64,000 nucleotides of DNA. Source: Candidatus Omnitrophota bacterium. GTDB lineage: Bacteria; Omnitrophota; Gorgyraeia; Zapsychrales; JAHFFX01. Location of the stretch: the NCBI GenBank assembly GCA_023247725.1, contig JAHFFW010000003.1:704-64703 (forward strand), written 5' to 3'. The position numbers were made by a program, and so were the translations under genes. Under the pieces are notes generated by a model. That model saw only the letters and a program-made list of their open reading frames with translations, made no database searches and was not told the DNA's origin. Below, piece after piece: positions 24,211 through 58,172 of this stretch (position 1 is the first letter of the stretch; the number at the start of each line of letters is the position of its first letter).

Positions 24211-24695
24211 CTAATTGGTCGCGGCGAGCAGCTCGTTAAGGCAATCGAGGACCTCTTCATGATGAGTTTTCGGTCGGACCTTGGGGAAGATTTTGGCAAT
24301 CTTGCCATTTTTATCAATAATAAATGTCGTACGCTCAACTCCCATGTATTTGCGTCCCATGAACGTCTTTTGCTGCCAGACCCCATAATCCTGCAACATC
24401 TTTTTGTCGGGATCGCTCAATAAGAGAAAGGGGAGATTAAATTTTTGGATGAATCGTTCGTGGCTCTGAACACTATCCGGGCTAACTCCCAGAATTATGG
24501 AGTCCTTGCCAGTGATGGATTTGATCGCGTCCCGAAAATTGCAAGCCTCGACGGTACAACCGGGGTATCATCCTTAGGGTAAAAATACAGGACCACATTT
24601 TTATTACCGCGAAAATCTTTGAGCGAAACCTGACCTCCATGCGAGGCTCGCAGGGAAAATTCTGGCGCCAGATTGCCTTCCTTGAGTTTAGTCAT
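24211..24695 (-). pseudogene. bcp: Peroxiredoxin Bcp (AhpC/TSA family), disrupted by a 1-nt frameshift in a G4/C4 run at 24551-24554, exactly at the peroxidatic Cys codon
   Basis: The N-terminal ORF gives ...[18 protein letters not shown].... Shifting one nt restores [15 protein letters not shown]...DKKMLQDYGVWQQK... through to the C-terminal ORF 24211..24420. Confidence 0.75.
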
Positions 24696-24711
24696 TGGTT
24701 TGTCCTTTTTT

Positions 24712-24760
24712 GTGGCTCGTGGCCCGTGACCCGTCAACGGCCACGAGCCACAGGTCACGA
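24712..24760. repeat. GC-rich palindromic repeat, family B (pseudoknot-capable)
   Basis: gtggctcgtggcc-cgtgacccgtcaac-ggccacgagccac-aggtcacg: a perfect 13-bp stem, with loop segment cgtgacc complementary to the downstream ggtcacg. Confidence 0.45.
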
Positions 24761-38769: not shown

Positions 38770-39684
38770 ATGAAACGCAATTTTGTCAATATTGAGGATT
38801 TTTCCGGTGAAGAGATTTTGCAACTTTTGGAATTGGCCAAAAAACTCAAGGCAAACCGGAAACTGCATTCGCAAGCCCTGGAGGGAAAAACCTTCGCCTT
38901 GTTGTTTACCAAGCCGTCGAATCGAACCCGGGTCTCTTTTGAAGTGGGCATCCACCAGTTGGGAGGAAACTGCATTTATTTAAGTCCTCGCGAGATCCAG
39001 TTAGGGGAGCGGGAATCTGTTTCTGATGTGGCAGGCACGTTGTCTCGCTTTGTCGACGGCATTGTGGCGCGGACCGACACCCACAAGGATGTCGAAGACC
39101 TGGCGCGTTTTTCCAGTGTCCCGGTCATTAATGGCCTGAGCGACGAACAGCATCCCTGTCAGGCCTTGGCGGATCTATTTTCCATTAAAGAAAAGCTTGG
39201 CAAATTGAAAGGGATCACGTTGGCCTTTGTCGGTGACGGCAATAACGTTTGCCATTCACTCATGCTGGGCTCTGCTCTGGTCGGTTTACAGATGAGGATC
39301 GCGACGCCCAAGGCGTACGCGCCGGATCCGAGCATTCTCAAAAAGTGCCAACAACTGGGGCAACGCTCGGGAGCGGAAATCGCTTGGATGGAATCGCCGG
39401 CTGAGGCCGTGAAGGACGCCCACGTGATTTATGCCGATACCTTCGTGAGCATGGGCCAAGAAGCAGAAATGAAAAAGCGGCTCAAAGACTTTAAGAAATT
39501 CCAAATTAACTCTGGGTTAGCCAAACTGGCAGACAAGAACTTTATTTTTATGCATTGTTTGCCGGCCCACCGCGGACAGGAAGTGACCGAAAAAATTATT
39601 GACGGGAAACATTCGATCATTTTTGATCAAGCGGAAAATCGGCTGCATGTGCAGAAGGCCATCCTGATTCGACTAATGCAATGA
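38770..39684 (+). CDS. argF: Ornithine carbamoyltransferase ArgF
   Basis: STRTR carbamoyl-phosphate motif and HCLPAHRGQEV. Confidence 0.9.
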   Translation: MKRNFVNIEDFSGEEILQLLELAKKLKANRKLHSQALEGKTFALLFTKPSNRTRVSFEVGIHQLGGNCIYLSPREIQLGERESVSDVAGTLSRFVDGIVARTDTHKDVEDLARFSSVPVINGLSDEQHPCQALADLFSIKEKLGKLKGITLAFVGDGNNVCHSLMLGSALVGLQMRIATPKAYAPDPSILKKCQQLGQRSGAEIAWMESPAEAVKDAHVIYADTFVSMGQEAEMKKRLKDFKKFQINSGLAKLADKNFIFMHCLPAHRGQEVTEKIIDGKHSIIFDQAENRLHVQKAILIRLMQ

Positions 39685-40094
39685 GCAAACCCCGCAAAAA
39701 TGAATTTTCCAAGGTGATTGCAACGAGAAGATTAATCGCCCAAAATATCCGAGGTCGAAAATCGGAGATCATGGTTAGAATTTCTAAACCAGTCTCAGAG
39801 AAACATTATTACCGATGTTGCTATACACTCGAAGGCCTGTCTAAAGAAATCGAGTCGGCTTGTGGAGAAGACGCCGTGCAAGCCCTTGAACTGGGGTTAA
39901 AGAAGATCGGTCGTGACCTTGATCACCTTCAAAAAGCTAAAAAGCTGAAGATCACTTGGTTGGGGATGCACCACAGTTTCCCGGAAGTAAAGATATCAAC
40001 AATTTTCCCCTCGAAAAAATTAAATCAATATCTCAAAAAGGTTGACCATCTTACGAAGCTCATAAAAGCGAACCGGTCAATACCGAAAATCTAG
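39681..40094 (+). CDS. Hypothetical 137-aa protein embedded in the arg operon. Not ArgR-like.
   Basis: ATGA overlap with the argF stop. Basic protein with a YYRCCY segment; no recognisable family. Confidence 0.5.
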   Translation: MSKPRKNEFSKVIATRRLIAQNIRGRKSEIMVRISKPVSEKHYYRCCYTLEGLSKEIESACGEDAVQALELGLKKIGRDLDHLQKAKKLKITWLGMHHSFPEVKISTIFPSKKLNQYLKKVDHLTKLIKANRSIPKI

Positions 40095-40125
40095 AAACAC
40101 GATGACTTTTTAGGATTTAAAAGGT

Positions 40126-40533
40126 ATGATCCCGGATAATCCGAGAGTCCCATCGGTTGGAGTTCAGATTTTTGGAATCCTTCAAGTCCTGCTGGGGATT
40201 CTAGGTATTTTTTCGCTTCTTGGAATCAAGGAGCGTGACTTGTTCGATCTGTTCATCATGGGGACCCTGGCTTTCAATATTTTCTTGGGATTCAAAATGC
40301 TTCAACTTAAACCTTACGCCAGAATCGCAACTCTGCGGTTGGTGTATTTTTTATTAACAATTTATCTTTTGGCTGTCTGGGGATTGGGATATTCCTTAAC
40401 CAATCATGACGGTTTCATTTGTTTGCTATTCACAGCTATTGGGGTCGTAATCGCCTCTCCCGTTATATTTTTTCTCAGACACCCCAAAGTAAGGGAACAA
40501 TTTACCGTACCAATAGATACCCAAAGGATGTGA
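40126..40533 (+). CDS. Hypothetical 4-TM membrane protein embedded in the arg operon
   Basis: 135 aa with four hydrophobic helices; ends 8 nt before argG. Confidence 0.5.
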   Translation: MIPDNPRVPSVGVQIFGILQVLLGILGIFSLLGIKERDLFDLFIMGTLAFNIFLGFKMLQLKPYARIATLRLVYFLLTIYLLAVWGLGYSLTNHDGFICLLFTAIGVVIASPVIFFLRHPKVREQFTVPIDTQRM

Positions 40534-41704: not shown

Positions 41705-41706
41705 TT

Positions 41707-41762
41707 CGTGACTCGTCGCCCGTGGCTCGTCTCGGGACACGAGTCACGGGTCCCGAGCCACT
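41707..41762. repeat. GC-rich repeat, family B, with interleaved (pseudoknot-type) complementarities
   Basis: gtgactcgt ... gtggctcg ... acgagtcac ... cgagccac in A-B-A'-B' order in the 73-bp argG-argH spacer. Confidence 0.45.
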
Positions 41763-41777
41763 AAAAAGGAAATCACC

Positions 41778-43121
41778 ATGACCAAACTCTGGGGAGGACG
41801 ATTTAGCAAAAAGACTGATCCAAGGGTGGAGGAGTTCACCCGGTCGATTCACTTTGACCGGAAACTCGCGGCCTACGATTGCATCGGCTCCTTGACGCAC
41901 ATCGATATCCTGAAGAAGGCGAATCTCATTTCTTCGAAAGAACATAAACACCTGCAAAGCGGTTTGGAGGAAATCCTTCAGTCCATTCGTCAAAGTCGAT
42001 TTCCGATTGATGAAACGGCGGAAGATATCCATACGGCGATCCAGCAGGCCTTAGAAAAAAAAGTGGGGAAGGTGGCGCTTAAACTCCACACCTGTCGCTC
42101 GCGCAACGATCAAGTTGTCTTTGCCACAAAACTCTTCTGCATGGAAGAGATCAAAAATATCCAAAAGCTTCTGGAAGGTCTTCGCCAAACCCTTTTTGAT
42201 GTGGCCTTAGAGAACTCAGACATTTACCTGCCGGGATATACTCATCTGCAGCATGCGATGCCCGTTCGGCTGGTCGATGTTCTTTTGGCTTATGAAGAAA
42301 TGTTCACGGCCGACCAAAAACGTCTGCAGAATGTCTATGAAGGCATTCACCTCAATATGGGCTCGGGAGCGCTCGCCGGGACTTTTATTGATGCCAAAAA
42401 CTATAATCAGGCGGTTCATTCGGTTCTTCCGGAACGATTGCAGGTGAAGTCGACGACCAATTCGATTTATACCGTGAGCGACCGTGATTTTGTCGTGGAT
42501 CTCTTGAATGCCTTGTCCATCACTGGCATGCATGCCTCGCGTTTGGCGGAGGATTTTATTCTGTGGGCCACCCAGGAATTCGATTTTATCGATATTGACG
42601 AATCGTTTTGCACGGGGAGTTCGCTCATGCCGCAGAAAAAAAATCCCGATGTCCTGGAACTCATCCGCGGCTACAGCGGGAGGCTTTATGGGAATCTTGT
42701 CAATGTATTGGTCGTTCTCAAAGGGCTGCCGTTGTCCTACAATCGCGATTTGCAGCACGACAAGGAACCCCTGTTTGATTCACTGCGGATCGTGAACGGC
42801 GAGTTGTCCATCTTGACGGCGTTATTGAAAAAGATTTCATTCAAAAAAACCAGCATCGAACGACAATTAGACGATGAATTGCTTTATGCGACGGATTTAG
42901 CTGATCATTTAGTCAAAAGCGGAGTTCCCTTCAAAGAGGCCCACTCCACGATTGGAAAGTTGGTCAGTTACAAACTTGCCCAAGGCAAGGACCTCATCCG
43001 CATGAGCGCGGAAGAATTAAAGGTATTTTCTCCCTTTTTGACCCCGGCGGTCATTCGCCATACCATCAATCCGAAACATTCGGTGCAGGCCAAAAAATCC
43101 GTCACCAAGCGGATCAAATAA
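41778..43121 (+). CDS. argH: Argininosuccinate lyase ArgH
   Basis: Fumarate-lyase family, GSSLMPQKKNPD signature. Confidence 0.9.
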   Translation: MTKLWGGRFSKKTDPRVEEFTRSIHFDRKLAAYDCIGSLTHIDILKKANLISSKEHKHLQSGLEEILQSIRQSRFPIDETAEDIHTAIQQALEKKVGKVALKLHTCRSRNDQVVFATKLFCMEEIKNIQKLLEGLRQTLFDVALENSDIYLPGYTHLQHAMPVRLVDVLLAYEEMFTADQKRLQNVYEGIHLNMGSGALAGTFIDAKNYNQAVHSVLPERLQVKSTTNSIYTVSDRDFVVDLLNALSITGMHASRLAEDFILWATQEFDFIDIDESFCTGSSLMPQKKNPDVLELIRGYSGRLYGNLVNVLVVLKGLPLSYNRDLQHDKEPLFDSLRIVNGELSILTALLKKISFKKTSIERQLDDELLYATDLADHLVKSGVPFKEAHSTIGKLVSYKLAQGKDLIRMSAEELKVFSPFLTPAVIRHTINPKHSVQAKKSVTKRIK

Positions 43122-44496: not shown

Positions 44497-45327
44497 GCAC
44501 ATCAAAACCAGCGAATTCTGTTTACAAAAATGGTCGGAGCCGGGAATGATTTTCTGGTGATCGAAAATCTTTCTAAAACCGATCCCCAAAAGCTCGCGGT
44601 AGCCATGTGTGCGCGCCAAACCGGCGTGGGCGCCGACGGTCTTCTTCTCTTGGGGACGTCCAAGAAAGCCGATTACCAAATGCGCATCATCAATTCCGAC
44701 GGTTCCGAAGCGGAGATGTGCGGAAATGGCGTCCGCTGCCTGGCCGTTTATATTACCCATTTTAAAAAACCGAAAAAGAAACTCTTCACGATCGAGACCT
44801 TGGCCGGCATGGTGGAGGGCCAAGCCAACCGCGAAACGGCCCGGGTTCATTTGAGCGACCCGAAAGATTACCGTCCGGATCTCCCTTTAGAAATCAACGG
44901 CCGTTCCTTAAAAGCGAATTCCATCGATACGGGGGTGCCGCACCTCATCATTTTCGTGGACGGACTCGACAACATCGCCGTCAACGAATTGGGCCGCCAA
45001 TTGCGGCATCATGCAGCCTTTGAACCCCGCGGGACAAACGTCAACTTTGTTGAACAAAAAAATGAAACGCTGGTTGCGGTCAGAACCTATGAACGCGGCG
45101 TCGAAGCCGAAACCAATGCCTGCGGCACAGGAGCGGTCGCCTCCGGTATCGTTGGATTTTTGCTGGCGCATCCTCAAATTCAAACAACCAAGAAAGCAGT
45201 CATGAACGTCTTAACCAAAAGTAGAGAAATCTTAGAGATTTCTTTTCAAATAAACAACGGCCGGATTTTTGATGTTTGGCTCAAAGGCAGTGGAAAGATC
45301 ATTGCCCAAGGGGAGTACTATGTTTAA
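44497..45327 (+). CDS. dapF: Diaminopimelate epimerase DapF. The ATG at 44497 is preferred; the track start at 44467 lies inside the repeat.
   Basis: FTKMVGAGNDF and the two catalytic Cys (CGNGVRC, ACGTGAV). Confidence 0.85.
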   Translation, partial: AHQNQRILFTKMVGAGNDFLVIENLSKTDPQKLAVAMCARQTGVGADGLLLLGTSKKADYQMRIINSDGSEAEMCGNGVRCLAVYITHFKKPKKKLFTIETLAGMVEGQANRETARVHLSDPKDYRPDLPLEINGRSLKANSIDTGVPHLIIFVDGLDNIAVNELGRQLRHHAAFEPRGTNVNFVEQKNETLVAVRTYERGVEAETNACGTGAVASGIVGFLLAHPQIQTTKKAVMNVLTKSREILEISFQINNGRIFDVWLKGSGKIIAQGEYYV

Positions 45328-46210
45328 GGGTTCCATTGTCGCGATTCTCACTCCATTTCAAAACGGCAGGGTCGATGAAACGGCGCTCTCGAAGCTGATT
45401 GAATTCCAGATCAAAAATGGAACAACCGGGATTGTTCCCTGCGGAACGACCGGCGAATCGCCTACGTTGTCGACGGCAGAGCATGAGAGGGTGATTGAAC
45501 TTTGCCTCAAATTCACGGCCAAGCGAATTCCGGTGATTGCGGGCACGGGCTCTAATTCAACCGAAGAAGCGATTTCGCTGACGCGGCATGCGGCGCAGGC
45601 TGGAGCCGACGCGGCTCTGATTGTTTCTCCTTACTACAATCGTCCGACGCAAAAAGGCCTTTATTTGCATTTTAAAGCGATTGCCGACGCTGTGGATGTC
45701 CCCATTATCTTGTACAACATCGCCGGCAGGACGGGAGTGAATATTGAACCGGCGATCATTCAAAAACTGGCGAATGATTGCAAAAATATCATCGGGGTTA
45801 AGGAAGCCTCCGGATCTTTGGATCAGATGGCGAACATTCGGCACCTATGCGGTGAAAAATTTATTTTGTTATCCGGTGACGATGCCTTGACCCTGCCGCT
45901 TTTATCCATCGGGGGGGCGGGTGTCATTTCTGTCGTCGCGAATATTGTCCCCAAGGACGTGAGCGACATGGTCCATGCCTTTGAAAAGGGCGACCCACAA
46001 AAAGCCCAAAGGCTTCACGAAAAGCTTTACCCCTTGATCAAGGCCATGTTTCTCGAAACGAATCCCATTCCCGTCAAAACCGCCGCTGGCCTGATGGGGC
46101 TTTGCCAGCCGGATTTACGCTTACCGTTGTGCGAAATGGGAGAAGAAAACCTCGCCAAGCTCAAAAAAGCCCTCAAGGATTATGGGCTGATGAAAACGAA
46201 GTCGTCGTAA
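45317..46210 (+). CDS. dapA: 4-hydroxy-tetrahydrodipicolinate synthase DapA
   Basis: MFKGSIVAILTPF start (RBS AAGGGGA); GTTGES and Schiff-base Lys region. Confidence 0.9.
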   Translation, partial: TMFKGSIVAILTPFQNGRVDETALSKLIEFQIKNGTTGIVPCGTTGESPTLSTAEHERVIELCLKFTAKRIPVIAGTGSNSTEEAISLTRHAAQAGADAALIVSPYYNRPTQKGLYLHFKAIADAVDVPIILYNIAGRTGVNIEPAIIQKLANDCKNIIGVKEASGSLDQMANIRHLCGEKFILLSGDDALTLPLLSIGGAGVISVVANIVPKDVSDMVHAFEKGDPQKAQRLHEKLYPLIKAMFLETNPIPVKTAAGLMGLCQPDLRLPLCEMGEENLAKLKKALKDYGLMKTKSS

Positions 46211-46269
46211 TCACCGAATCTCAAGAAACAATCACCAAAAAAATAATCAAATTCCAATAATCAAAATTT

Positions 46270-46476
46270 ATGGGATCAAGGGAGATATCGATGGGGCTCA
46301 TCCATGCCAATATCGTGCTGAAGAATCCTCAGCGGAGTAAACTTGCGCCGGTCAAAACAACCGCCTCGGTTGATTCGGGAGCGGTGCATTTATGTATTCC
46401 CGAGCACATTCAATTGCAATTAAAACTGAAATCCATCGACCAGAAAGAATTTTCCTTGGCCGAGGTTTCATTCTAA
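46270..46476 (+). CDS. Truncated retropepsin-like aspartic protease fragment, 68 aa
   Basis: TASVDSGAVHLCIPEHIQLQLKL resembles the D(S/T)GA active-site segment of clan AA proteases. The ORF stops exactly where the dapB 5' remnant begins. Confidence 0.3.
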   Translation: MGSREISMGLIHANIVLKNPQRSKLAPVKTTASVDSGAVHLCIPEHIQLQLKLKSIDQKEFSLAEVSF

Positions 46477-46477
46477 G

Positions 46478-46537
46478 ATGATCAAACTCGCCATCAGCGG
46501 CTATCGGGGAGCGATGGAAAGAAATTATAGTTATTGA
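46478..46537 (+). pseudogene. Decayed duplicate of the dapB 5' end (19 codons, then stop)
   Basis: atgatcaaactcgccatcagcgg is identical over 23 nt to the dapB start at 47217; the next codons give GYRGAMER versus GARGRMGQ in dapB. Confidence 0.5.
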
Positions 46538-46544
46538 AGAAACA

Positions 46545-46883
46545 GTGAGGTGGGATATGGTCAAAGTTAATTTTCTTCCCAAGCCCCTTAGAAAAAAGGG
46601 TATTGAGCAAAAATTGCAAAACGCCTGCGAAGAGAATGACATCGTGTTTCTAGCCATGTTCGGTTCGTTTGCCCAAGCTAAACAAACAAAAAAAAGTGAC
46701 ATCGACTTCATTGTACGCTTTGATAAATCGCAAACCAAAAGCCTCTTGGATTTGATTCATACAGAAAATGATCTAAAAAAAATATTCAAACGAAAAATAG
46801 ATCTGCTGACCGAAGACAGCCTTAGCCCCTATCTCAAAGACGACGTTTTAAAGTCAATGCGGGTTGTCTATGAAAAACGATAA
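46545..46883 (+). CDS. mntA: Minimal nucleotidyltransferase antitoxin (MntA-type)
   Basis: FGSFAQAKQTKKSDIDFIV contains the GS-x(9-10)-DxD pol-beta NTase motif; 112 aa. Confidence 0.7.
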   Translation: MRWDMVKVNFLPKPLRKKGIEQKLQNACEENDIVFLAMFGSFAQAKQTKKSDIDFIVRFDKSQTKSLLDLIHTENDLKKIFKRKIDLLTEDSLSPYLKDDVLKSMRVVYEKR

Positions 46884-47199
46884 GGTTTATCTGAAGCATA
46901 TTTTTAAAGCCATTGATCTTATTGAAGAATTTACACGGGATATGACCCAAGAAGATTTTCTGCACGATAGTCTTGTTAGCAGCGCCGTTATAAGGCAATT
47001 AGAAATCATAGGAGAAGCGGTCAAGAATTTAACTCCGGATTACAAAAGAAAACGTCGAGATATCCCCTGGAAAGATATCGCCGGATTAAGAGATAAGTTG
47101 ATCCATCAGTATTTTGGTGTGGATTTGGCCTTGGTCTGGGCGATATGCTTAAAAGAGATTCCGCCATTAAAGCACAGAATTTCTCTGTCTTTCGAATAA
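46864..47199 (+). CDS. hepT: HEPN-domain toxin (HepT/DUF86)
   Basis: LRDKLIHQYFGVD carries the Rx4HxY HEPN motif. 20-nt overlap with the upstream NTase gene. Confidence 0.75.
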   Translation: MSMKNDKVYLKHIFKAIDLIEEFTRDMTQEDFLHDSLVSSAVIRQLEIIGEAVKNLTPDYKRKRRDIPWKDIAGLRDKLIHQYFGVDLALVWAICLKEIPPLKHRISLSFE

Positions 47200-47216
47200 C
47201 CTTAAGGAATACAACC

Positions 47217-47948
47217 ATGATCAAACTCGCCATCAGCGGTGCCCGCGGCAGGATGGGGCAACGGATCACAGCGCTCGCCGCTGAAGACAAGGCCTTTAAG
47301 ATTGTGGCCTTATTAGAAAATCCCCAGCACCCCGATGCCAATTCTCAGAAGAACGGCCTGACGATCAGCCCGGATCCATCCGTGATGAAAAAGTCCAATG
47401 TCCTCATCGAGTTCACATCGCCAGTGGCCACGATGGAACATCTGGATGCGGCCCAAAAATTTCGCATCAAAATGGTGATCGGCACAACCGGTCTCAACGA
47501 AATACAGATCGAACAGATTAAGGCCGCCAGCAAAAGGATTCCCATTGTCTTTTCCTCCAATATGTCGGTCGGGGTGAACATTCTGTTTGCCACTGCCCGG
47601 GATTTGGCTCGCCGCTGTGCCGGCCGATACCAGATGCGTATTGTCGAGGCTCATCACATCCATAAAAAAGACGCCCCATCGGGAACCGCCAAAACTTTAA
47701 CCCAGATTATTGAACAAGCGGCGAAAGACAAGGTGGTCGACATCCAGTCCATTCGCGAGGGAGAAACCATCGGCGATCACGAAATCATTTTCGAAAGCCC
47801 GGTCGATACCATCAAAATTAGCCATCACGCGAAGACGCGCGACATCTTTGCCGCCGGGGCGCTCGTCGCCGCCAAGTTTCTCGCTAAAAAATCCAAAGGT
47901 CTTTTCACCATGGAAGATGTCCTTGGAATAAAAAATAAGGAGATATAG
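47217..47948 (+). CDS. dapB: 4-hydroxy-tetrahydrodipicolinate reductase DapB. The ATG at 47217 is preferred over the track's 47145.
   Basis: MIKLAISGARGRMGQ NAD(P) motif and EAHHIHKKDAPSGTA; intact, 243 aa. Confidence 0.9.
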   Translation: MIKLAISGARGRMGQRITALAAEDKAFKIVALLENPQHPDANSQKNGLTISPDPSVMKKSNVLIEFTSPVATMEHLDAAQKFRIKMVIGTTGLNEIQIEQIKAASKRIPIVFSSNMSVGVNILFATARDLARRCAGRYQMRIVEAHHIHKKDAPSGTAKTLTQIIEQAAKDKVVDIQSIREGETIGDHEIIFESPVDTIKISHHAKTRDIFAAGALVAAKFLAKKSKGLFTMEDVLGIKNKEI

Positions 47949-47950
47949 AA

Positions 47951-48172
47951 ATGACTAAAGCCTTAGAAGAAATTGTTTTTATCGTAGAAGAATCCCCGGA
48001 GGGGGGCTATGTCGCCAGGGCATTGGGAGTCAGCATTTTTACCCAGGCGGAGGATTTGAAAAGTTTGCGCACAGAGGTAATCGACGCCGTCCGTTGCCAT
48101 TTTCACGATCATCCGCAGCCACCGAAGATCATTCGCCTTCACATGGTCAAAGATGAAGTCCTGGCTGTATGA
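47951..48172 (+). CDS. hicB: HicB-like antitoxin
   Basis: 73 aa; EESPEGGYVARALGVSIFTQAEDLKSLRTEVIDAV matches the HicB N-terminal (UPF0150) pattern. Confidence 0.6.
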   Translation: MTKALEEIVFIVEESPEGGYVARALGVSIFTQAEDLKSLRTEVIDAVRCHFHDHPQPPKIIRLHMVKDEVLAV

Positions 48173-48411
48173 AGATCCCTCGTGATATTACCGGCCTTGA
48201 TTTAGCCAAAGCCTTAAAACGTTATGGTTGCGAGATTGGACGGCAAACCGGAAGTCATCTGCGTTTGATGACTCAATTGAACGGTGAGCATCATATCACT
48301 ATTCCGCGTCACAATCCGCTTAAGATCGGAACATTGTCCGCTATTCTAAGCGACGTTGCAATTCATCTTGAAAAAGAACGAGGTAAATTCATTGAGGAGC
48401 TGTGGGGATAA
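48169..48411 (+). CDS. hicA: HicA mRNA-interferase toxin
   Basis: MKIPRDITGLDLAKALKRYGCEIGRQTGSHLRL...HITIP: the YcfA/HicA signature including the catalytic His. Confidence 0.75.
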   Translation: MKIPRDITGLDLAKALKRYGCEIGRQTGSHLRLMTQLNGEHHITIPRHNPLKIGTLSAILSDVAIHLEKERGKFIEELWG

Positions 48412-48414
48412 TGG

Positions 48415-48525
48415 GATTCGAAAATACCCGCGACATCTTCGCCGCCGGAGCGCTGGCGGCTGCAAAATTCTTAGCCAAGAAAAAACGGCCTCTTTAGCCT
48501 GGAAAAAGTCCTTAGTGAAAATTAA
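48415..48525 (+). pseudogene. Decayed duplicate of the dapB 3' end (about 75% nt identity, frameshifted)
   Basis: Reads ENTRDIFAAGALAAAKFLAKKKRPL*, versus the dapB C terminus TRDIFAAGALVAAKFLAKKSKGLFTMEDVLG. Confidence 0.55.
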
Positions 48526-48673
48526 TCCAAATAAAATCGAGGGAATATCGTTAAACCAGTCGAAGAAATACTTTTTATGGTATGGGGGAGTTTCCAATCC
48601 CCATTAGACAGTTGAATAAATTTTCGTCTGCCCCAATTCCATCCATCAAAAAAAAGAGGCCATTCACCGATAC

Positions 48674-49084
48674 GTGGTCTCGGGCTTTTATACGGTCTGC
48701 ATCTTGGGAGGGTTCTATTTCACTGCAATGGTGGTCGCCTTTGGGTTGCAGACGACTCAATGGCAAGAATGCCCAGGAGAAATCCAAGGGGTCGAATACA
48801 TTCAGAGCGTCCCCACTTCCCTTTTTCCTCCCTACTATGAAGTGCTATACCGATACAACGTAGATGGAAAAAGTTACGATGGCAGCGAAGGTGAAAGTGT
48901 CTTTCACATGAAGTCACATTATTCTCCCGGACAAACTGTAAAAGTTTATTACAATCCGAAGGAATATTTTATGTCGGTATTGACTCCGGGCATTGATGTG
49001 GGGCTCGCTTTGCTGGGAATATTCTTTTCCTTTATTGCCTATCTTGTTTTTATGATGAAACGAAAGAAATTTCGTTATCCATAA
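48674..49084 (+). CDS. DUF3592-like small membrane protein
   Basis: Two terminal TM helices around a YRYNVDGKSYDGSEG...VKVYYNPKEY core. Confidence 0.5.
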   Translation: MVSGFYTVCILGGFYFTAMVVAFGLQTTQWQECPGEIQGVEYIQSVPTSLFPPYYEVLYRYNVDGKSYDGSEGESVFHMKSHYSPGQTVKVYYNPKEYFMSVLTPGIDVGLALLGIFFSFIAYLVFMMKRKKFRYP

Positions 49085-49107: not shown

Positions 49108-50274
49108 ATGCCGAGCCATATTGATTTTTCTGATCGACTAAAGCAATTGCCGCCGTATCTTTTTGTGGAAATCGACAAGGCGAAAAGGGCGGCCCGTGCC
49201 GCTGGCCGGGATATCATTGACTTGGGAATCGGCGACCCGGACACTGGCACGGCGCAACCCATCATCGACGCCCTCAAAGAGGCCGCTCAGAACCCGGCGA
49301 ATCATCATTACGCACTTGATGCCGGAATGCCAGCGCTGCGTCAGGCCATCTCGTTTTGGTTCTCCAAACGCTTTTCTGTTAACCTTGATCCTGACACAGA
49401 AATTTATCCCCTCATCGGCTCGAAAGAAGGGCTTTCGCATTTGCCCTTAGGCGTCATCAATCCCAAAGATAAAGTCATTGTCCCTGATCCGTGCTATCCA
49501 GGGTATTTGGGTGCTGTGATCTTTGCCGGCGGAAGGCTGGTCCGGCTTCCTTTAAAAGAACGCAGCGGTTTTTTGCCGGATCTGGATAAAATCAAAGACC
49601 TCAAAGACATCAAGCTCATGTACCTCAATTATCCGAATAACCCGACGGCAGCGGTCGCGCCCAAGAATTACTTGGAACAATTGGTGCAGATCGCCCGTGA
49701 TCGCGGAATTATTCTGGTTTCGGATCTGGCTTATTCTGAAATCTATTTCGATAATGAAAAACCTTCGAGTGTTCTGGAAGTGGAGGGGGCCAAAGAAATC
49801 GCCATTGAGTTTCATTCCTTTTCGAAAACTTTTTCGATGACCGGCTGGCGCATCGGATGGGCCTGCGGAAATCCCGAACTCGTGAAGGCTCTGGCCAAAG
49901 TCAAATCGAATATCGACTCTGGAATCTTCCAGGCGATTCAGATTGCCGGAATCACGGCCCTGCAAATGCCCGAAGAAAAAATCGAACGCCTGCGGGCCAT
50001 GTACCAGGAACGTCGCGACTACCTCATTCATGGTCTGCGCAGCCTCGACTGGAAAATCCCGCCTCCGAAGGCAACGTTCTATGTTTGGGGAAAAATCCCC
50101 AAAAAGTTTCCGGATTCCATGACCGCGGCCAAATTTTTTTTGGAAGAAGCCAACATCGTTGCCACGCCGGGTGTCGGTTTCGGAGAACAGGGAGAAGGCT
50201 ACATCCGGATGACGATCACGGTGCCCAAAGAGCGCATCAACGAAGCCGTTGAACGCCTGCGAAAGGTCCTCTAA
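49108..50274 (+). CDS. dapL: LL-diaminopimelate aminotransferase DapL
   Basis: LPPYLF, IDLGIGDPD and GMPALRQAI motifs of DapL in a class I aminotransferase; sits inside the dap cluster. Confidence 0.8.
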   Translation: MPSHIDFSDRLKQLPPYLFVEIDKAKRAARAAGRDIIDLGIGDPDTGTAQPIIDALKEAAQNPANHHYALDAGMPALRQAISFWFSKRFSVNLDPDTEIYPLIGSKEGLSHLPLGVINPKDKVIVPDPCYPGYLGAVIFAGGRLVRLPLKERSGFLPDLDKIKDLKDIKLMYLNYPNNPTAAVAPKNYLEQLVQIARDRGIILVSDLAYSEIYFDNEKPSSVLEVEGAKEIAIEFHSFSKTFSMTGWRIGWACGNPELVKALAKVKSNIDSGIFQAIQIAGITALQMPEEKIERLRAMYQERRDYLIHGLRSLDWKIPPPKATFYVWGKIPKKFPDSMTAAKFFLEEANIVATPGVGFGEQGEGYIRMTITVPKERINEAVERLRKVL

Positions 50275-51561: not shown

Positions 51562-52362
51562 ATGGGAATTATTGGTTGTGGAGCCATCGGATCAAGAATC
51601 GCGAAAACGATTAGTCAGGATCTGGCGAAAGATTGTTCCTTAACCGCGCTCTACGATATTGATCTGGCTAAGTCCCGGGCCTTGGCCAAACATCTGCGGA
51701 ATCTTGATCTGGTCAAGTCTTCTTTGAAAGAACTGCTGTGCGTCGCGGATTTCGTGGTCGAGGCCGTGGCCTCGAAGGAGACCGCCGCGATCATTCGAAC
51801 TGTCCTCGAAGCCAAAAAAGATATTTTAATCATGAGTGTAGGACAACTTCTGTTGGCGGAAGACCTTTTTCAACTGGCAGATCAAAACAAATGCAGTGTC
51901 TTGATTCCTTCGGGCGCCATTGCGGGTCTCGATGCGATCAAGGCCGCTGTTTGTGCAGGCATTGAAAAAATAACTCTAACCACGCGAAAACCTCCCTCGG
52001 GATTTTCCGATAACCCTTATGTCAAAAACCAGGGGATCAATCTTGACGATTTGCATGAAGAAACGACGCTCTTTGAAGGAACGGTGAAACAGGCGCTGCA
52101 CCATTTTCCTAAGAATATCAACGTTGCCGCAACCCTGGCTTTAGCGGGCGACTGCAGCGATTCTTTGCAAGTCCGGATTATCACATCGCCGCACGTTCGG
52201 ACCAATTCCCACGAAATTGAGGCGATCGGCGAATTTGGCCGGATCAGCACCAAGACGGATAACGCCGTCTGTCCGGATAATCCCAAAACCAGTTATCTGG
52301 CGGTTCTCTCAGCGATTGTCACGCTCAAAGAGTATCTTCGAGGAGTCAAGATCGGAACTTAA
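51562..52362 (+). CDS. nadX: L-aspartate dehydrogenase NadX
   Basis: MGIIGCGAIG start, then SGAIAGLDAIKAA ... NINVAATLALAG ... DNPKTSYLAVLS, which aligns with Thermotoga NadX. Confidence 0.8.
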   Translation: MGIIGCGAIGSRIAKTISQDLAKDCSLTALYDIDLAKSRALAKHLRNLDLVKSSLKELLCVADFVVEAVASKETAAIIRTVLEAKKDILIMSVGQLLLAEDLFQLADQNKCSVLIPSGAIAGLDAIKAAVCAGIEKITLTTRKPPSGFSDNPYVKNQGINLDDLHEETTLFEGTVKQALHHFPKNINVAATLALAGDCSDSLQVRIITSPHVRTNSHEIEAIGEFGRISTKTDNAVCPDNPKTSYLAVLSAIVTLKEYLRGVKIGT

Positions 52363-52390
52363 AATACCCAAGGGAGGGAGGTGAACAACG

Positions 52391-52642
52391 ATGGCCCAAA
52401 AAGTCGCTAAGGTTGGAGTCAAAAAGGAAAAGGGGTTCCTGTACTTTGTCGACCGGCAAGGGGACGTCTCCTGCGCAAAAATGGCGCGCGGCAACAAAAA
52501 AGGCGGCGCCCCCAAAAAAGTCGCTAAAGTCGGTGTCAAGAAACAAGACGGATATCTGTACTTTCTTGACAAACAGGGTGATATTTCCTGCGCAAAATTA
52601 ATCCGCGGAGGAAAGAAAAAGAAATCGGCAAAAAGAAAATAA
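52391..52642 (+). CDS. Small basic protein (83 aa) made of two tandem copies of a 36-aa repeat: KVAKVGVKK..G(F/Y)LYF(V/L)D(R/K)QGD(V/I)SCAK
   Basis: Strong RBS GGAGGGAGG. Two half-length repeats visible at nt and aa level; Lys-rich tail. Confidence 0.55.
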   Translation: MAQKVAKVGVKKEKGFLYFVDRQGDVSCAKMARGNKKGGAPKKVAKVGVKKQDGYLYFLDKQGDISCAKLIRGGKKKKSAKRK

Positions 52643-52812
52643 ACCTCCTGTCATCAGGAGAATAATCGGCATCATAACCTTTTGCACCTCCCGGCCTGTC
52701 CCATTGCCACAGGACGGGGGGTGTGATAGGCTTTGTATTCTTCGATTGTTCCTGCTTTCCTTCTGCCGTATTCCCCACCCTGAGCTCACCATTGAAATCA
52801 AAGGCTGCTCCC

Positions 52813-55653
52813 ATGCAAAATAATTTCATCACCATCCGTGGTGCCAAAGAACACAATTTAAAGAATATTGACCTCAAGATTCCCCGCAATCAGCTGGTCG
52901 TCGTGACCGGTTTGAGCGGTTCAGGAAAATCATCGTTGGCCTTCGATACCATTTACGCCGAAGGCCAGCGCCGGTATGTCGAAAGTCTTTCGGCCTATGC
53001 CCGGCAATTCCTGGAACAACTGCAGAAACCCGACGTGGAAGCAATTGAAGGGCTGTCTCCGACCATCTCCATTGAACAAAAAACCACCAGCCGCAATCCG
53101 CGTTCTACGGTCGCGACCCAAACAGAGATTTATGACTATTTGCGTTTGCTGTTCGCCCGTATTGGAACGCCTCACTGTTATCAATGCGGCAAGAAAATTG
53201 AACGCCAAACCGTTCCCGAGATTGCCGGACAAATTCTTAAACTAGAACCGGGAACCGCCATTAATATCCTTGCACCGTTGGTGCGCGGCCGCAAAGGCGA
53301 ATATCGGCAAATCCCCAAACAGGTCGCGCAGGCCGGCTTTGTCCGGATTCGGGTCGATGGAAAAATTCGCGATATCCAGCCGCCTTTGGTTTTGGATAAA
53401 TTCAAGATTCACCATATTGAAGTTGTGGTTGATCGCTTGACCGTTAGACCGGAAATCCGCAAGCGCCTGACGGATTCGATTGAAACGGCCTTGCAGACCG
53501 GCGATGGTTTGGTGATGGTCGATTTTAACGGACAGGCCCCCGATCGCATCTTCAGCGAAAAATATGCCTGCGTTGATTGCGGGATCAGCATCGTCGAGAT
53601 CGAACCGCGGATTTTTTCTTTCAATTCCCCTTATGGCGCGTGTCCGACGTGCAACGGGCTCGGAACCAAAATGGAGATTGATCCGGAACTCATTGTTCCG
53701 GATCCCGCAAAACCGTGGGTTCAGGCCGTTGTGCCCTGGCACAAAGGCGGACGCGGATTTATGTTTTATTATCGCGCGGTTTTTCGCGAGATTGCGCAAC
53801 GCTATGGCGTTCAATCGGACAGCCCTTATCAAAATTTAAACAAACGTTTTAAAAATATCATCCTTTATGGATCCCATGATGTCATTTGGGGCAGACAATT
53901 TGAAGGCGTCCTGGCTTACCTGGAACGTTTATTTAGAGAAACCGATAACGAATGGCTCAAAGATGAACTTGCCAGATTCATGTCGGTTTTGCCTTGTCCT
54001 GACTGTACGGGTCAGCGGTTAAAAAAAGAATCCCTGGCGGTCAAGATCGCGGATAAGGATATTGCGGAGGTGACCGCCCTTCCCATCAAAGAGGCCAAAC
54101 AATTTTTCCAGACACTGTCCTTGAGCCGTGATCAGCAAACCATTAGCGTTCCCATCTTAAAAGAGATTTGCCGACGTTTGGACTTCTGCATCAATGTCGG
54201 ATTGGAATATCTCACCTTAGACCGGCGCAGCGCCACCCTTTCCGGCGGGGAAGCCGAACGCATTCGCCTGGCAACGCAAGTGGGTTCCGGATTGGTGGGC
54301 GTCATTTATATCCTGGACGAACCCAGCATTGGTTTGCACCAAAAAGATAATGAACGGCTTTTGTCGACACTGCAGTCCTTACGGGATTTAGGGAACAGTC
54401 TCATTGTGGTCGAGCATGATGAGGCCACCATTCGGGCCGCGGATTTCATTATTGATCTAGGCCCCGGAGCCGGGGAATACGGCGGGGAAATCATTTATGC
54501 CGGGGACATCCCGGGGCTGTTACGATCGCCCGATTCTTTAACCGGCCAATATCTGCGCGGACAATTGCGGATTCCGATACCCGACAAAAGACGAGAAACC
54601 CTCAAAACCCCTCAGTTAAAAATCTGGGGAGCTAAAGAACATAATCTAAAAAACATTGATGTCATTCTGCCTTTAGGCGCCTTTATCGCCATCACCGGCG
54701 TTTCCGGGTCCGGAAAATCCACTCTGGTCGATGACATCCTTTATAAAGCCCTCGCGCAAAAAATCTATCGTTCAAAAGAAAAGCCCGGCGAATTCAAAAA
54801 AATCGAAGGAGTCGAACAGCTCGATAAGGTGATTGTCGTTGATCAATCGCCGATTGGCCGCACACCCCGTTCGAATCCGGCCACCTACACCGGTCTTTTT
54901 AGTCCCATCCGCGACTTATTCAGCCAATTGCCCGAAGCTAAACTGCGCGGCTATAAACCCGGCCGCTTTAGTTTCAATGTCAAGGGCGGCCGCTGCGAGG
55001 CCTGCTCCGGAGACGGGATTAAAAAAATCGAAATGCATTTTCTTCCCGATGTCTATGTCGAGTGCGAGGTCTGTCACGGTCAGCGCTTCACCGAACAAAC
55101 GCTCGATATCCAGTATAAGGGAAAGACGATCGCGCAAGTTCTCAATCTTGCCGTGGATGAGGCCATGACTGTTTTTGAAAATATCCCCCGCATCAAAAAT
55201 ATTTTGCAGACCTTGCACGACGTGGGACTAGGCTACATCAAGTTGGGTCAATCAGCGACGACCCTTTCCGGCGGAGAAGCCCAACGCGTCAAACTCGCGA
55301 GCGAACTGTGCAAAACCGCCACCGGCCGGACGCTTTATATCCTGGATGAACCCACGACGGGCCTGCATTTTGCCGATGTGGAAAAACTTCTGGGGGTTTT
55401 GCAGCGTTTGGTCGACCGGGGCAATACGGTGCTCGTCATTGAGCACAACTTGGAAGTCATTAAGAACGCGGATTATATTGTCGACTTGGGACCGGAGGGA
55501 GGGGACCGGGGAGGGCAGATCATCTTTGCCGGCACGCCGGAAGACATCATCAAAGAAAAGTCGTCTCACACCGGACGCTATCTCAAGGATATACTTTTAC
55601 CGCCGCAAAAAACGCGCGTGGGCCAAATCTCAAGCGTTGGAATTTCGTCGTGA
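52813..55653 (+). CDS. uvrA: Excinuclease ABC subunit A UvrA
   Basis: [16 protein letters not shown] start, two ABC modules with Walker [10 protein letters not shown] and GVSGSGKST and the zinc-finger Cys clusters. Confidence 0.95.
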
Positions 55654-58172
55654 GGCCTGTTATAATGACTCCCATGTTTTTACAATTGCTTTTACGAATG
55701 CGGCTGGTCGTCTTTTTGCTGACCGGATTGATCACTTTGAGCTATTTACCCAAAAAAGTTGCGGCTCAAGAAGACGAAAAGGAATTGTTTCTCATCGCCC
55801 AAAGGGCTTTCGACGACGGATTTTATGATGTCGCCATCCGCTATATCGAACAATTTTTACAAAAATATCCGCAAACTGAGAAACGCGTTCAGGCCAATCT
55901 CCTCTTAGGCCAATGCTATTTTTTTAAAAATCAGTATCTGAAGGCGTTCAATATCTTTCAATCGCTCGCTGGCAGTTCCGAGTTCAAAGATGCGATCCTG
56001 TTCTGGCTGGGCGAGACCTACCTTAAAGGATCCGATTACTCCCAGGCCGAAAAACAATACAAACAGGTCATTGAACTTTTCCCCAATTCTCCGTATGCTC
56101 CACAGGCTTTTTATTCGCTCGCCTGGACACATTTCGAACAAAAAGATTACAAAAGGGCGCAAGAGCACTTTAAACAGCTCACCAAAAAATTTCCTCTGCA
56201 CCAATTGACCGAAGACGGCTTTTTTAAATCGGGCGAATGCGAATACAATCTGCGGCAATATGAGAATGCCATTGAAGAGTTTCAAAATTACATCATCAAA
56301 TATCCCAAATCCAACCGGCGTGACCAGGCCTATTTTTATATTGCCGAGTCTTTTTACTATTTAAATGAATATTCTGATGCCATTGATTATTACGGCAAAA
56401 CCGTAGCGATATCGACGGATGCCAAATTAACCGTCATGGCGAACGTGAGCCTGGGCTGGAGCTATTTAAAACAGAAACAATTTGACGCTGCCCAAAAGGC
56501 TTTCTTGGCGGCGCAGCAGTTGGCGGATGAAAAAAATATCCTCTCCGATGACATCTTTCTAGGGGAAGCGAGCCTTTATACCGAAATGGGCGAACACGCC
56601 AAGGCGCTCGCGGCTTACAGTCGGTTGATCCAAGATTTTCCCAAAAGCCCGCGGCTTATTGAAGCATTCTTGGGAAAGGCCAATATCCAGTATCTGCTCA
56701 AGGATTATCCGGCTTCCATCGAAACCTATCAGAATCTGATCAACAAATATGCGGAATCCGCCGACAATAAAGAGATCATTGAAAAAGCCTACTTTGGTCT
56801 GGCCTGGGCCTTTTTGAAAAAGGGCGATATCGATGCGGCCATCAGCAATTTCGAACATATCAAATCGCAGACGGAAAATAAGACCGTCAAGATTAGCGCG
56901 CTCACTCAAATCGGCGATGCGTACCAGGATGCCGGCAAACTGGATAAGGCCCTGGATATTTATGATCAGATCCTGCGCGATTATCCCGACAGCCTCTACA
57001 GCGATTATGTGCAATACCGACAAGGAATCGCCCTGCTTAAGATGAACAAACTGGACGCTGCCGCACTTTCCTTACAGACGTTAGCAGCCAATTTTCCCAA
57101 AAGCAAGCTGATCACCGACAGCAAATACTATCTGGGTGTTGCCTATTTTAAAAAGAATGACTGGCCCCGGGCCAAAGAACTCATCGAAAATTTTTTGAAA
57201 GAGGCCCCGAAGAATTCCGATTTTCTGCCCGAAGCCAACTATATCCTGGCCTTGTCCTTTTTTAACCTCAACGACCCGGCCAATGCGATGAAAACCTTTG
57301 ATAAAATCCTGAAGCTCTATGCGGACGATGAGAATCTTGTGCATCAGTGTGAACTGGGGATGGCCAAATCCCTTTATCAACTCGGCGATGCCAAAGAGGC
57401 CATCAAAAAATTCAAACTCATCCTCTATAAATATCCGCAGACCGAGACCGCCCTCAATGCCATGATGTGGCTGGGGGATTACTATCTGGAAAATTCTGAA
57501 TTCGACAACGCCTTAGAATTTTACCAACAGATTCTGACCAATTTCCCCCACCATAAACAAATTCCGCTCCTCCATTATAAAATCGGCCAGGCGCATCAGG
57601 CCAAAGGAAATCTGGATAAGGCGATCAATGCCTACAAACTCATCGACGATCCTAAAGATAAAGAATTGTATGCCAAGGCCAAGCTCGCCATCGCGGAGAT
57701 TTTTTCCAAAGAAATGGACCTCGATACCGCCATCACCACGTATCGCAATATCGCCGCCAATTGTCCGGAAATGAAACGCGATGCATTGCTAAAAATTGCC
57801 GAAGCGAACAACCTCGAGCATAAATATGAGGAATCCTTGCAGACCCTCAATGAGGCCTTGAGGGCTGACCCGGGCTTGAGTGAATTGACGAATGCAGAAT
57901 TGCAATTTCGCATTGGCGACCTCGAAGAGCTCCTCAATAAACCCGACGCGGCCATTGAAAATTATTTGAAAGTTCCGTATCTGTATCCCAAGGAAACAAC
58001 CTGGGTCGTTAAATCTTATCTTCGTGTCGCCCGCCTTTTCGAAGACAAAGAAGATTGGGAAAATGCCAAAAGCATCTACCAAAAAATCATTGCCTCTGGC
58101 ACCGACGAGGTCAAGTTTGCCCAGGAACGCCTGGACTGGATCCAAGCGAATACCAACAAACCGCAACTTTAG
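55650..58172 (+). CDS. Large secreted tetratricopeptide-repeat protein (840 aa)
   Basis: N-terminal signal/TM segment followed by more than 15 TPR-like repeats (BamD/YbgF-like). Start overlaps the uvrA stop. Confidence 0.7.

Follow-up and report, generated by a model that had tools for sequence, protein, structure and literature searches.

An intact dapB between two toxin–antitoxin pairs and remnants of dapB ends: a possible displacement scar in the lysine operon of an uncultured Omnitrophota bacterium

Genes of biosynthetic operons can be replaced at their exact position with the gene order being kept, a process termed in-situ (xenologous or homeologous) gene displacement; the concept reportedly goes back to Omelchenko et al. 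(2003), and the phrase is in use in the operon literature. Some integrative elements target the 5′ or 3′ terminus of a tRNA or housekeeping gene and repair the interrupted gene by a copy of this terminus of their own. Chromosomal HepT/MntA (type VII) and HicAB (type II) toxin–antitoxin (TA) pairs are mobile and selfish passengers; in type VII pairs, HepT toxicity is neutralised through AMPylation catalysed by MntA. For the arrays of orphan modules at Rhs, contact-dependent inhibition (CDI) and type VI secretion system (T6SS) loci, an origin by illegitimate recombination that homology facilitates was proposed (Kirchberger et al. 2017, PMC5361080); the same proposal of C-terminal displacement is credited there to Jackson et al. 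2009 (as cited in PMC5361080). Here, we compare with these systems a locus around the lysine biosynthesis gene dapB, contained in a 64,000-nucleotide (nt) stretch of DNA from an uncultured groundwater member of the Omnitrophota (contig JAHFFW010000003.1 of assembly GCA_023247725.1; “the window” denotes this whole stretch), the species being known from one sample only.

In the window, the intact dapB is bracketed by two TA pairs and, beyond these, by remnants of a dapB start and of a dapB end (Table 1). The two remnants are complementary (codons 1–14 and codons 206 to the end), follow each other in the right order and the same orientation, and enclose the inserted block. They are dead copies, because invariant residues are replaced (K206N, R12, G14) and the frame is shifted, and they represent a different allele rather than a decayed local duplicate, because their divergence is mostly synonymous and of the size found between species. 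We tentatively regard them, with somewhat less than even confidence, as the displaced ends of an earlier allele, left behind by a single displacement event through illegitimate joining; the functional dapB, or at least its ends, most likely came from a related lineage. The original prediction for this DNA, made from the letters alone, had likewise read the locus as an in-situ replacement, brought about by an incoming cassette of the composition [mntA-hepT-dapB-hicBA], with two independent TA insertions as its alternative.

The comparison with the described systems reveals a likeness and a difference in each case. As at Rhs, CDI and T6SS loci, an incoming part of a conserved gene together with a toxin/antidote pair would occupy the functional position, and the former 3′ terminus, along with the beginning of its former partner gene, would have been shifted downstream in the same orientation as a scar. 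In those systems, however, the conserved gene carries the toxin and the kept immunity genes are useful, whereas here, the conserved gene codes for a housekeeping enzyme, the old hicB has been destroyed, a scar in mirror image exists on the 5′ side as well, and there is a single displaced layer instead of orphaned 3′ pieces accumulating downstream. The recombination proposed for those loci would combine a homologous anchor on one side with microhomology at the illegitimate joint. With in-situ displacement, the locus shares the replacement of a biosynthetic operon gene at its exact position and the conserved gene order; classical cases, known from phylogeny, are without physical traces, whereas here both ends of the displaced gene would survive, and a phylogenetic sign of foreign origin is missing, since donor and recipient would be of one clade. 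As with integrative elements, the gene would be kept intact by a supplied end and the displaced end forms a partial repeat, which is a perfect 23-nt repeat on the 5′ side; unlike these elements, the locus has no integrase, the inserts are ~0.6–0.7 kb in size and contain a TA pair only, and the 3′ repeat is no identical core, its identity being 75% over ~160 nt. The TA pairs themselves resemble the usual passengers in family domains, motifs and overlapping two-gene layout; their GC content at third codon positions (GC3) is lower than that of the host genes, and they are patchily distributed over many phyla. However, they reside inside an essential biosynthetic operon, in operon orientation, and abut both ends of one gene. 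Components (HepT/MntA, HicAB), process and scar layout are all known. The case is a fairly ordinary recombination scar, not a new system, yet a clean natural example with an essential biosynthetic gene.

Table 1. Gene and remnant positions around dapB (window coordinates).
Feature	Position	Strand	Family match or remark
dapF, then dapA	up to 46210	+	
dapA (dihydrodipicolinate synthase), upstream operon neighbour	45272..46210	+	PF00701, E 5e-103
AT-rich spacer, 80 nt, GC 31%	46211-46290		
ORF68, truncated clan AA (retropepsin-like) aspartic protease gene	46270..46476	+	TIGR03698
5′ remnant, putative earlier dapB allele, codons 1 to ~14	46478..46519	+	
mntA, minimal nucleotidyltransferase antitoxin (type VII TA)	46557..46883	+	PF18765, PF01909
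hepT, HEPN RNase toxin	46870..47199	+	PF01934, 95 bits
Intact dapB (4-hydroxy-tetrahydrodipicolinate reductase), 243 amino acids	47217..47948	+	PF01113 (DapB_N), PF05173 (DapB_C)
hicB-like small HicA partner, putative antitoxin, 73 amino acids	47951..48172	+	pairing with hicA
hicA toxin	48169..48411	+	PF07927, 45 bits
3′ remnant, putative earlier dapB allele, codons ~206 to stop	48423..48525	+	single-base frameshift in A-run
Old dapB-hicB spacer and probable start remnant of an earlier hicB (from ~48547)	48526..48582	+	
DUF3592 membrane protein gene	48674..49084	+	PF12158; start 48674 (GTG) or 48728 (ATG)
Class I/II aminotransferase gene, probably LL-diaminopimelate aminotransferase (dapL)	49108..50274	+	PF00155

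Of the predicted properties of the 3′ remnant, the frameshift and the identity of about 75% were confirmed; the homology starts at 48423, not at 48415. From there on, the remnant aligns to nt 616–722 of dapB with a score of 58, as compared to a mean of 18.2 and a maximum of 27 for shuffled sequences; 45/60 nt match in the ungapped part, and there is one single-base indel in an A-run. After restoring the frame by one added A in this run, the comparison with the intact 3′ end yielded 15.5 synonymous and 10.5 non-synonymous changes over 31 codons, corresponding to proportions of synonymous (pS) and non-synonymous (pN) differences of 0.69 and 0.15, respectively. In the first 20 codons, 12/15 differences are synonymous (pS 0.80, pN 0.07). 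With synonymous differences saturated and replacements few, most of the divergence must have arisen while both genes were functional and subject to purifying selection. The exchanges K206N and V217A, affecting an invariant and a nearly invariant position of the family, reflect, together with the frameshift, a constraint that was relaxed after the event.

The closest dapB matches are from metagenome-assembled genomes of the Omnitrophota, the three nearest relatives being L002, L005 and L008. The 3′ remnant matches L002 and L008 at 49/60 nt each, with a range of 44–49 when dapB of all three nearest species is considered; against 62 species loci, each of the two window sequences has on average ~40–41 matches of 60. 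Intact dapB and 3′ remnant are equally far from the three relatives. The motif RDIFAAG with its FAAG signature is present exclusively in both window sequences and in L002, L005 and L008; thus, both alleles belong to the same clade.

The similarity continues beyond dapB. The segment 48423–48582 is colinear with 47832–47986, interrupted by small gaps, at ~75% identity over ~160 nt, and its last part, 48547–48582, aligns to the first 12 codons of hicB (IVKPVEEILFMV versus MTKALEEIVFIV). Taken in isolation, this part scores 27, a value that 3/1000 shuffles reach, and it sits where the colinearity predicts; its start codon is changed to ATC. The encoded peptide EEILFMV aligns to the N-terminal family consensus kEiiFlve, being too short for significance with a hidden Markov model (HMM). 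Downstream of this old hicB start, no hicA remnant was found. The displaced unit was probably composed of dapB 3′ end, spacer and hicB start, as judged from this alignment. Since the 3′ remnant probably runs into an older hicB start, hicBA probably adjoined dapB already before the event, and this does not agree with the predicted arrival of the TA genes simply with a cassette.

On the left side, the proposed exact copy of the dapB start was recovered: positions 46478–46500 equal 47217–47239 (23/23 nt) at a spacing of 739 nt. The local alignment score of 46 is far above that of shuffled sequences (mean 16.7, standard deviation 2.3, maximum 26); taking both remnants together (46 and 58), no shuffle exceeded 27, so that their likeness to dapB stands up to the comparison with shuffled sequence. 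The similarity extends to ~46519 (G-Y-R-G-A-M-E versus G-A-R-G-R-M-G), the left copy of the 23-nt repeat being followed by a stretch matching at 9/19 nt. Codons 8, 10 and 11 read GGC, CGG and GGA versus GGT, CGC and GGC in the intact gene, which is synonymous and the same as in L002; codons 9, 12 and 14 are damaged, with R12 and G14, both invariant in the family, being replaced. The identity over 23 nt loses some of its weight through the conservation of this stretch across species (22/23 nt match between window and L005). When the whole window was compared with itself, few significant repeats emerged, both remnants being among them, and no other gene-end remnants were found in its 64 kb.

The 5′ remnant still constitutes an open reading frame (ORF) of 19 codons at 46478–46537 (MIKLAISGYRGAMERNYSY, then a stop), ending 19 nt before the mntA start; it could be a leader coupling operon translation to the TA pair. 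The adjacent 23 nt at 46519–46541, encoding KEIIVIEE in the mntA frame, resemble the hicB start (18/23 nt; consensus KEIIFLVEE). This stretch was rejected as a hicB remnant, with 23–96/1000 shuffles reaching its score and the HMM finding nothing; if real, it would make the upstream scar a dapB-5′/hicB fusion left by a deletion.

The truncated retropepsin-like gene preceding the 5′ remnant, ORF68, ends as predicted directly at the remnant, its stop lying 1 nt upstream of the remnant ATG. It aligns to positions 1–53 of 107 of TIGR03698 (E 2e-6; 28 bits, below cut-off), and its residues 8–66 correspond to residues 1–59 of homologues that are longer, with up to ~190 amino acids, and extend well past its end. 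The homology begins at Met8 (46291), and a DSGA motif is found in the sequence. The gene was thus cut in half, with its N-terminal half remaining.

The TA genes occupy the predicted positions, HepT/MntA between the 5′ remnant and dapB and HicB/HicA between dapB and the 3′ remnant, based on Pfam matches and, for HicB, on the pairing with hicA; hepT ends 17 nt before dapB and hicA 11 nt before the 3′ remnant. MntA scores 58 bits with PF18765, 54 bits with PF01909, and 55.7 bits with NF047752 (MntA_antitoxin), the latter just under the cut-off of 60; its GSX10DXD motif, GSFAQAKQTKKSDID, can be read in the sequence. Directly downstream, hepT overlaps mntA by 14 nt (46870 versus 46883); the Rx4H motif RDKLIH of its product falls within the family-defining Rx4-6H, and the best homologue is 64% identical. 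HicA exceeds the PF07927 cut-off of 27 bits, possesses a GSH motif and is 67% identical to its best homologues; hicA overlaps hicB by 4 nt (ATGA). The HicB fold is a partial RNase H-like N-domain, usually combined with a DNA-binding domain. The hicB product of the window, whose 73 residues leave no room for a separate DNA-binding domain, had no match in Pfam, NCBIfam or PDB sequences; its predicted β3-α-β fold (single-sequence model, predicted local distance difference test score 78) gave no significant Foldseek match (best E-value 0.08), the weak ones including RNase H-like domains and 2yzt. A hicB-like partner abuts or overlaps hicA on its upstream side in ~80 metagenome loci, at 48–66% identity. 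Judged by family domains, motifs and the usual two-gene overlap, both TA pairs appear intact. Their GC3 values are 42% (mntA), 40% (hepT), 39.5% (hicA) and 53% (hicB).

Among 80 hicBA homologue loci, none contains dapB, dapA or dapL. Many of them are small-gene arrays separated by conserved ~60-nt repeats (L162, L159, L139, L153, L155, L119), such as L162:134–3754 with five copies of a 63-nt unit (84–100% identity) carrying internal GGGACA/TGTCCC arms; they look like cassette arrays.

The lysine operon is otherwise constant. The order dapF-dapA-dapB-dapL-folK is kept in nearly all of 80 species-representative Omnitrophota loci in which the genes were detected, and in the window, too, folK comes after dapL. 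In the relatives, dapA abuts or overlaps dapB and dapL follows directly 3′ of it; the nearest ones, L002, L005 and L008, whose dapB is 68–70% identical to that of the window, show the compact arrangement dapF-dapA-dapB-dapL with gaps of 3–21 nt and are free of TA genes, in support of the original prediction. More than 200 nt are inserted between dapA and dapB in 7 species and between dapB and dapL in 14. One of these inserts (L025:5506–6000, at the dapA/dapB junction) contains an MntA-like gene and a hepT truncated after ~40 codons; this MntA was acquired independently, since it is only 41% identical to that of the window. Another MntA-like gene follows dapB in L067, and nucleotidyltransferases of the DUF6036 type are found among the inserts of L025 and L054. 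Further inserts at the dapB junctions are DUF5674 (L017), a Bro-N protein (L050) and membrane proteins. Given these varied inserts across species, both dapB junctions constitute a recurrent landing site. The DUF3592 gene of the window (GC3 44%) is also not present between dapB and dapL in L002, L005 and L008. Copies of dapB, dapA or dapL ends were found in the inserted DNA of none of the 80 loci; the scars are special to this genome, and the TA-flanked layout recurs in 0/80 species loci. The dapB of L025 is closely preceded by a perfect hairpin of considerable length (GAGCCAATTCAGCAGAATTCTGCTGAATTGGCTC).

For the cassette of the original prediction as a mobile unit, these comparisons offer no support, because there is no second instance of it, the composition of the TA genes (GC3 40–53%) differs from that of dapB (63%), an older hicBA was probably present, and the junctions collect unrelated small genes.

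The history favoured here is that DNA of a related Omnitrophota member would have entered the resident dapB, with an illegitimate joint on either side. The incoming stretch would have consisted of mntA-hepT, a functioning dapB and hicBA, in this order from left to right, joined between codons 14 and 206. The resident gene would thereby have lost codons 15 to ~205, with codons 1–14 left upstream and codon 206 to the end downstream, and the incoming dapB would have taken over the function, which is the only way in which an insertion into an essential gene could be survived. That a whole gene is enclosed would be accounted for because survival required a working dapB on the fragment. The resident’s own older hicB start would have stayed behind the old 3′ end, the rest of the older hicBA having been deleted later, and the TA pairs may have helped to stabilise the block by addiction. 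We infer from this scheme, too, which of the two alleles was the resident one. The truncated aspartic protease gene and the DUF3592 gene are traces of other insertion events at the same place. A single event is supported in that one insertion-plus-deletion explains both remnants, with two rare junctions being sufficient, and by the synonymous differences of both remnants from the intact gene.

Several points weigh against this history. The older hicB remnant requires a second event, namely a deletion, and double illegitimate joining is rare in experimental systems. The old and the new allele agree in their first 23 nt despite ~25% difference elsewhere, for which the chance is roughly 0.05–0.1, given the conservation of this stretch. 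The sequence comparisons made do not identify the intact dapB as foreign; the remnants of another allele fit the predicted replacement in place, but the predicted contrast between lineage-typical remnants and a different intact copy was neither borne out nor refuted. The three nearest relatives of dapB, dapA and dapL are the same, and GC3 of dapB (63%) is close to that of dapF, dapA and dapL (58–59%). No donor, sister strain or second copy of the block was found in the databases.

The identity of the intact dapB to the three relatives, 68–70% as compared to 70.6–74.2% among these, makes it no significant outlier, and the shortfall of dapF is similar, if larger. GC3 along dapB is uneven (50–73% in 30-codon windows), and a test for a mosaic, based on GC3 along the gene and on identity to relatives, gave no usable signal or boundary. 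The nearest database matches are 70% identical for dapB and 64–67% for the TA genes; exact-protein look-ups with dapB, dapA and dapL returned only the source contig and one Logan contig of the same run. A search with the reconstructed old C-terminus produced three uninformative matches, one of them from a frameshift-ridden assembly. A 59-residue “DapB_C” of L171 (ERZ25039590 contig_18903) was rejected as a remnant; it is an artefact of uncorrected long-read frameshifts, with dapA, dapB, panC and uvrA each being split into several short ORFs. The tail of the intact dapB (…GIKNKEI; window 47926–47953) is unusual in comparison with the …VLGLK of the relatives. Its last codons, AAT AAG GAG ATA TAG, contain the hicB ribosome-binding site AAGGAG, and hicB starts 2 nt after the stop; thus, dapB and hicB are physically interlocked.

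Among the alternatives, two separate, mirror-image displacements of the dapB ends are possible, if doubtful. In this scenario, the intact dapB would be a mosaic with a possibly resident middle: on the right, a [dapB 3′ part + hicBA] fragment would have recombined within dapB at its left end and joined illegitimately at its right end, pushing the old 3′ end and hicB downstream; on the left, a [mntA-hepT + dapB 5′ part] fragment would have displaced the old 5′ end upstream. The older hicB remnant would be explained directly, and the 3′ scar is arranged just as orphan modules are after displacement, with part of the conserved gene followed by the beginning of its former cargo, downstream of the new module. 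In the systems studied, illegitimate recombination anchored by homology on one side is also much commoner than double illegitimate joining (PMC3240628, PMC5361080), the locus has seen several independent insertions (the protease gene, DUF3592, and inserts in ~20 other species), and the middle of dapB looks native. However, four rare junctions instead of two would be needed, the homologous anchor would be inefficient at ~25% nucleotide divergence, a mosaic boundary is not visible in dapB, and two scars on one gene would be a coincidence, given that the ~20 other insertions left none.

It is unlikely that the relation is the reverse one, with the intact dapB being resident and the remnants imported. 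TA elements carrying foreign dapB ends would then have integrated by a single crossover, as small circular or att-bearing elements (Campbell type or with an integrase acting in trans), regenerating the intact gene and leaving their own short dapB pieces as the remnants. The perfect 23-nt direct repeat flanking mntA-hepT, with the 9/19-nt match thereafter, has the signature of a short-core crossover, the intact dapB looks native, and many hicBA homologues reside in the small-gene arrays described above. Furthermore, TA pairs, MntA among them, are reported to belong to the cargo that chromosomes and circular elements have in common in a groundwater community with Omnitrophota among its dominant participants (preprint, bioRxiv 10.64898/2026.05.20.726742). 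Against such an integration stands that, in the Pfam table, no integrase or recombinase family occurs among the genes called within 10 kb on either side, that both TA blocks lack terminal inverted repeats and attC-like arms at their borders, that the 3′ repeat at ~75% identity provides no att core, and that dapB sequence was found at none of the TA homologue loci checked. A pre-existing resident hicB start would still be needed on the 3′ side. A related candidate, an integron gene cassette, was discarded, with no suitable inverted repeat at either TA pair and no integrase nearby.

A more general idea, which we consider quite improbable, is that TA modules might spread by using the ends of essential genes as homology handles, in an Rhs-like serial displacement that rebuilds the gene each time. 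Two observations are compatible with it, namely that an older hicB start follows the old 3′ end and that MntA-type inserts recur at both junctions in other species. If true, essential gene and addiction modules would mutually guard against their loss.

A tandem duplication of dapB ends on the spot with neutral decay, or an assembly chimera of two co-occurring Omnitrophota strains, is very improbable as the main explanation: a related organism does co-occur in the only sample from which the species is known (L008/L009, dapB 68% identical), but neutral decay would be spread over all codon positions instead of leaving the synonymous excess described above, the remnants are not identical to that organism (49/60 and 31/42 nt), unique TA or protease sequence flanks each of these short pieces on both sides, which is no switch between genomes, and two assemblers agree exactly, the independent Logan assembly of run SRR14366766 covering the entire structure with 6956 nt at 100% identity.

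Some observations on the remainder of the window may be added. All genes listed around dapB are on the + strand; no known RNA families were found in 45.5–49.5 kb, and a scan for promoters and terminators returned sites no commoner than in shuffled sequences. A second variable junction lies between argF and argG (39681–40533), with a DUF6968 gene and an ORF of 135 amino acids; in L002, a BrnT toxin gene and an ORF of 72 amino acids are directly upstream of argG, and in L005, no gene separates argF from argG. Twice, the window contains a GC-rich palindromic element (GTGGCTCGTGGCC…GGCCACGAGCCAC), at 24676–24760 and 41705–41797, with ~75% identity; one copy is located between argG and argH, and the element looks REP-like (repetitive extragenic palindromic) or terminator-like. 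Downstream of uvrA, TPR-rich genes contain internal tandem or paralogous protein repeats (52361–52711, 54091–55605 and 55788–57638).

The dapB junctions of the lysine operon are a documented insertion hot spot in the Omnitrophota, a poorly studied phylum. Sequenced close relatives of the present bacterium would directly reveal in which order the events took place and what part the addiction modules played. In-place replacement of operon genes is usually read from trees only; with the displacement history favoured here, the displaced ends would be a physical snapshot of an essential gene that was swapped without ever being lost.

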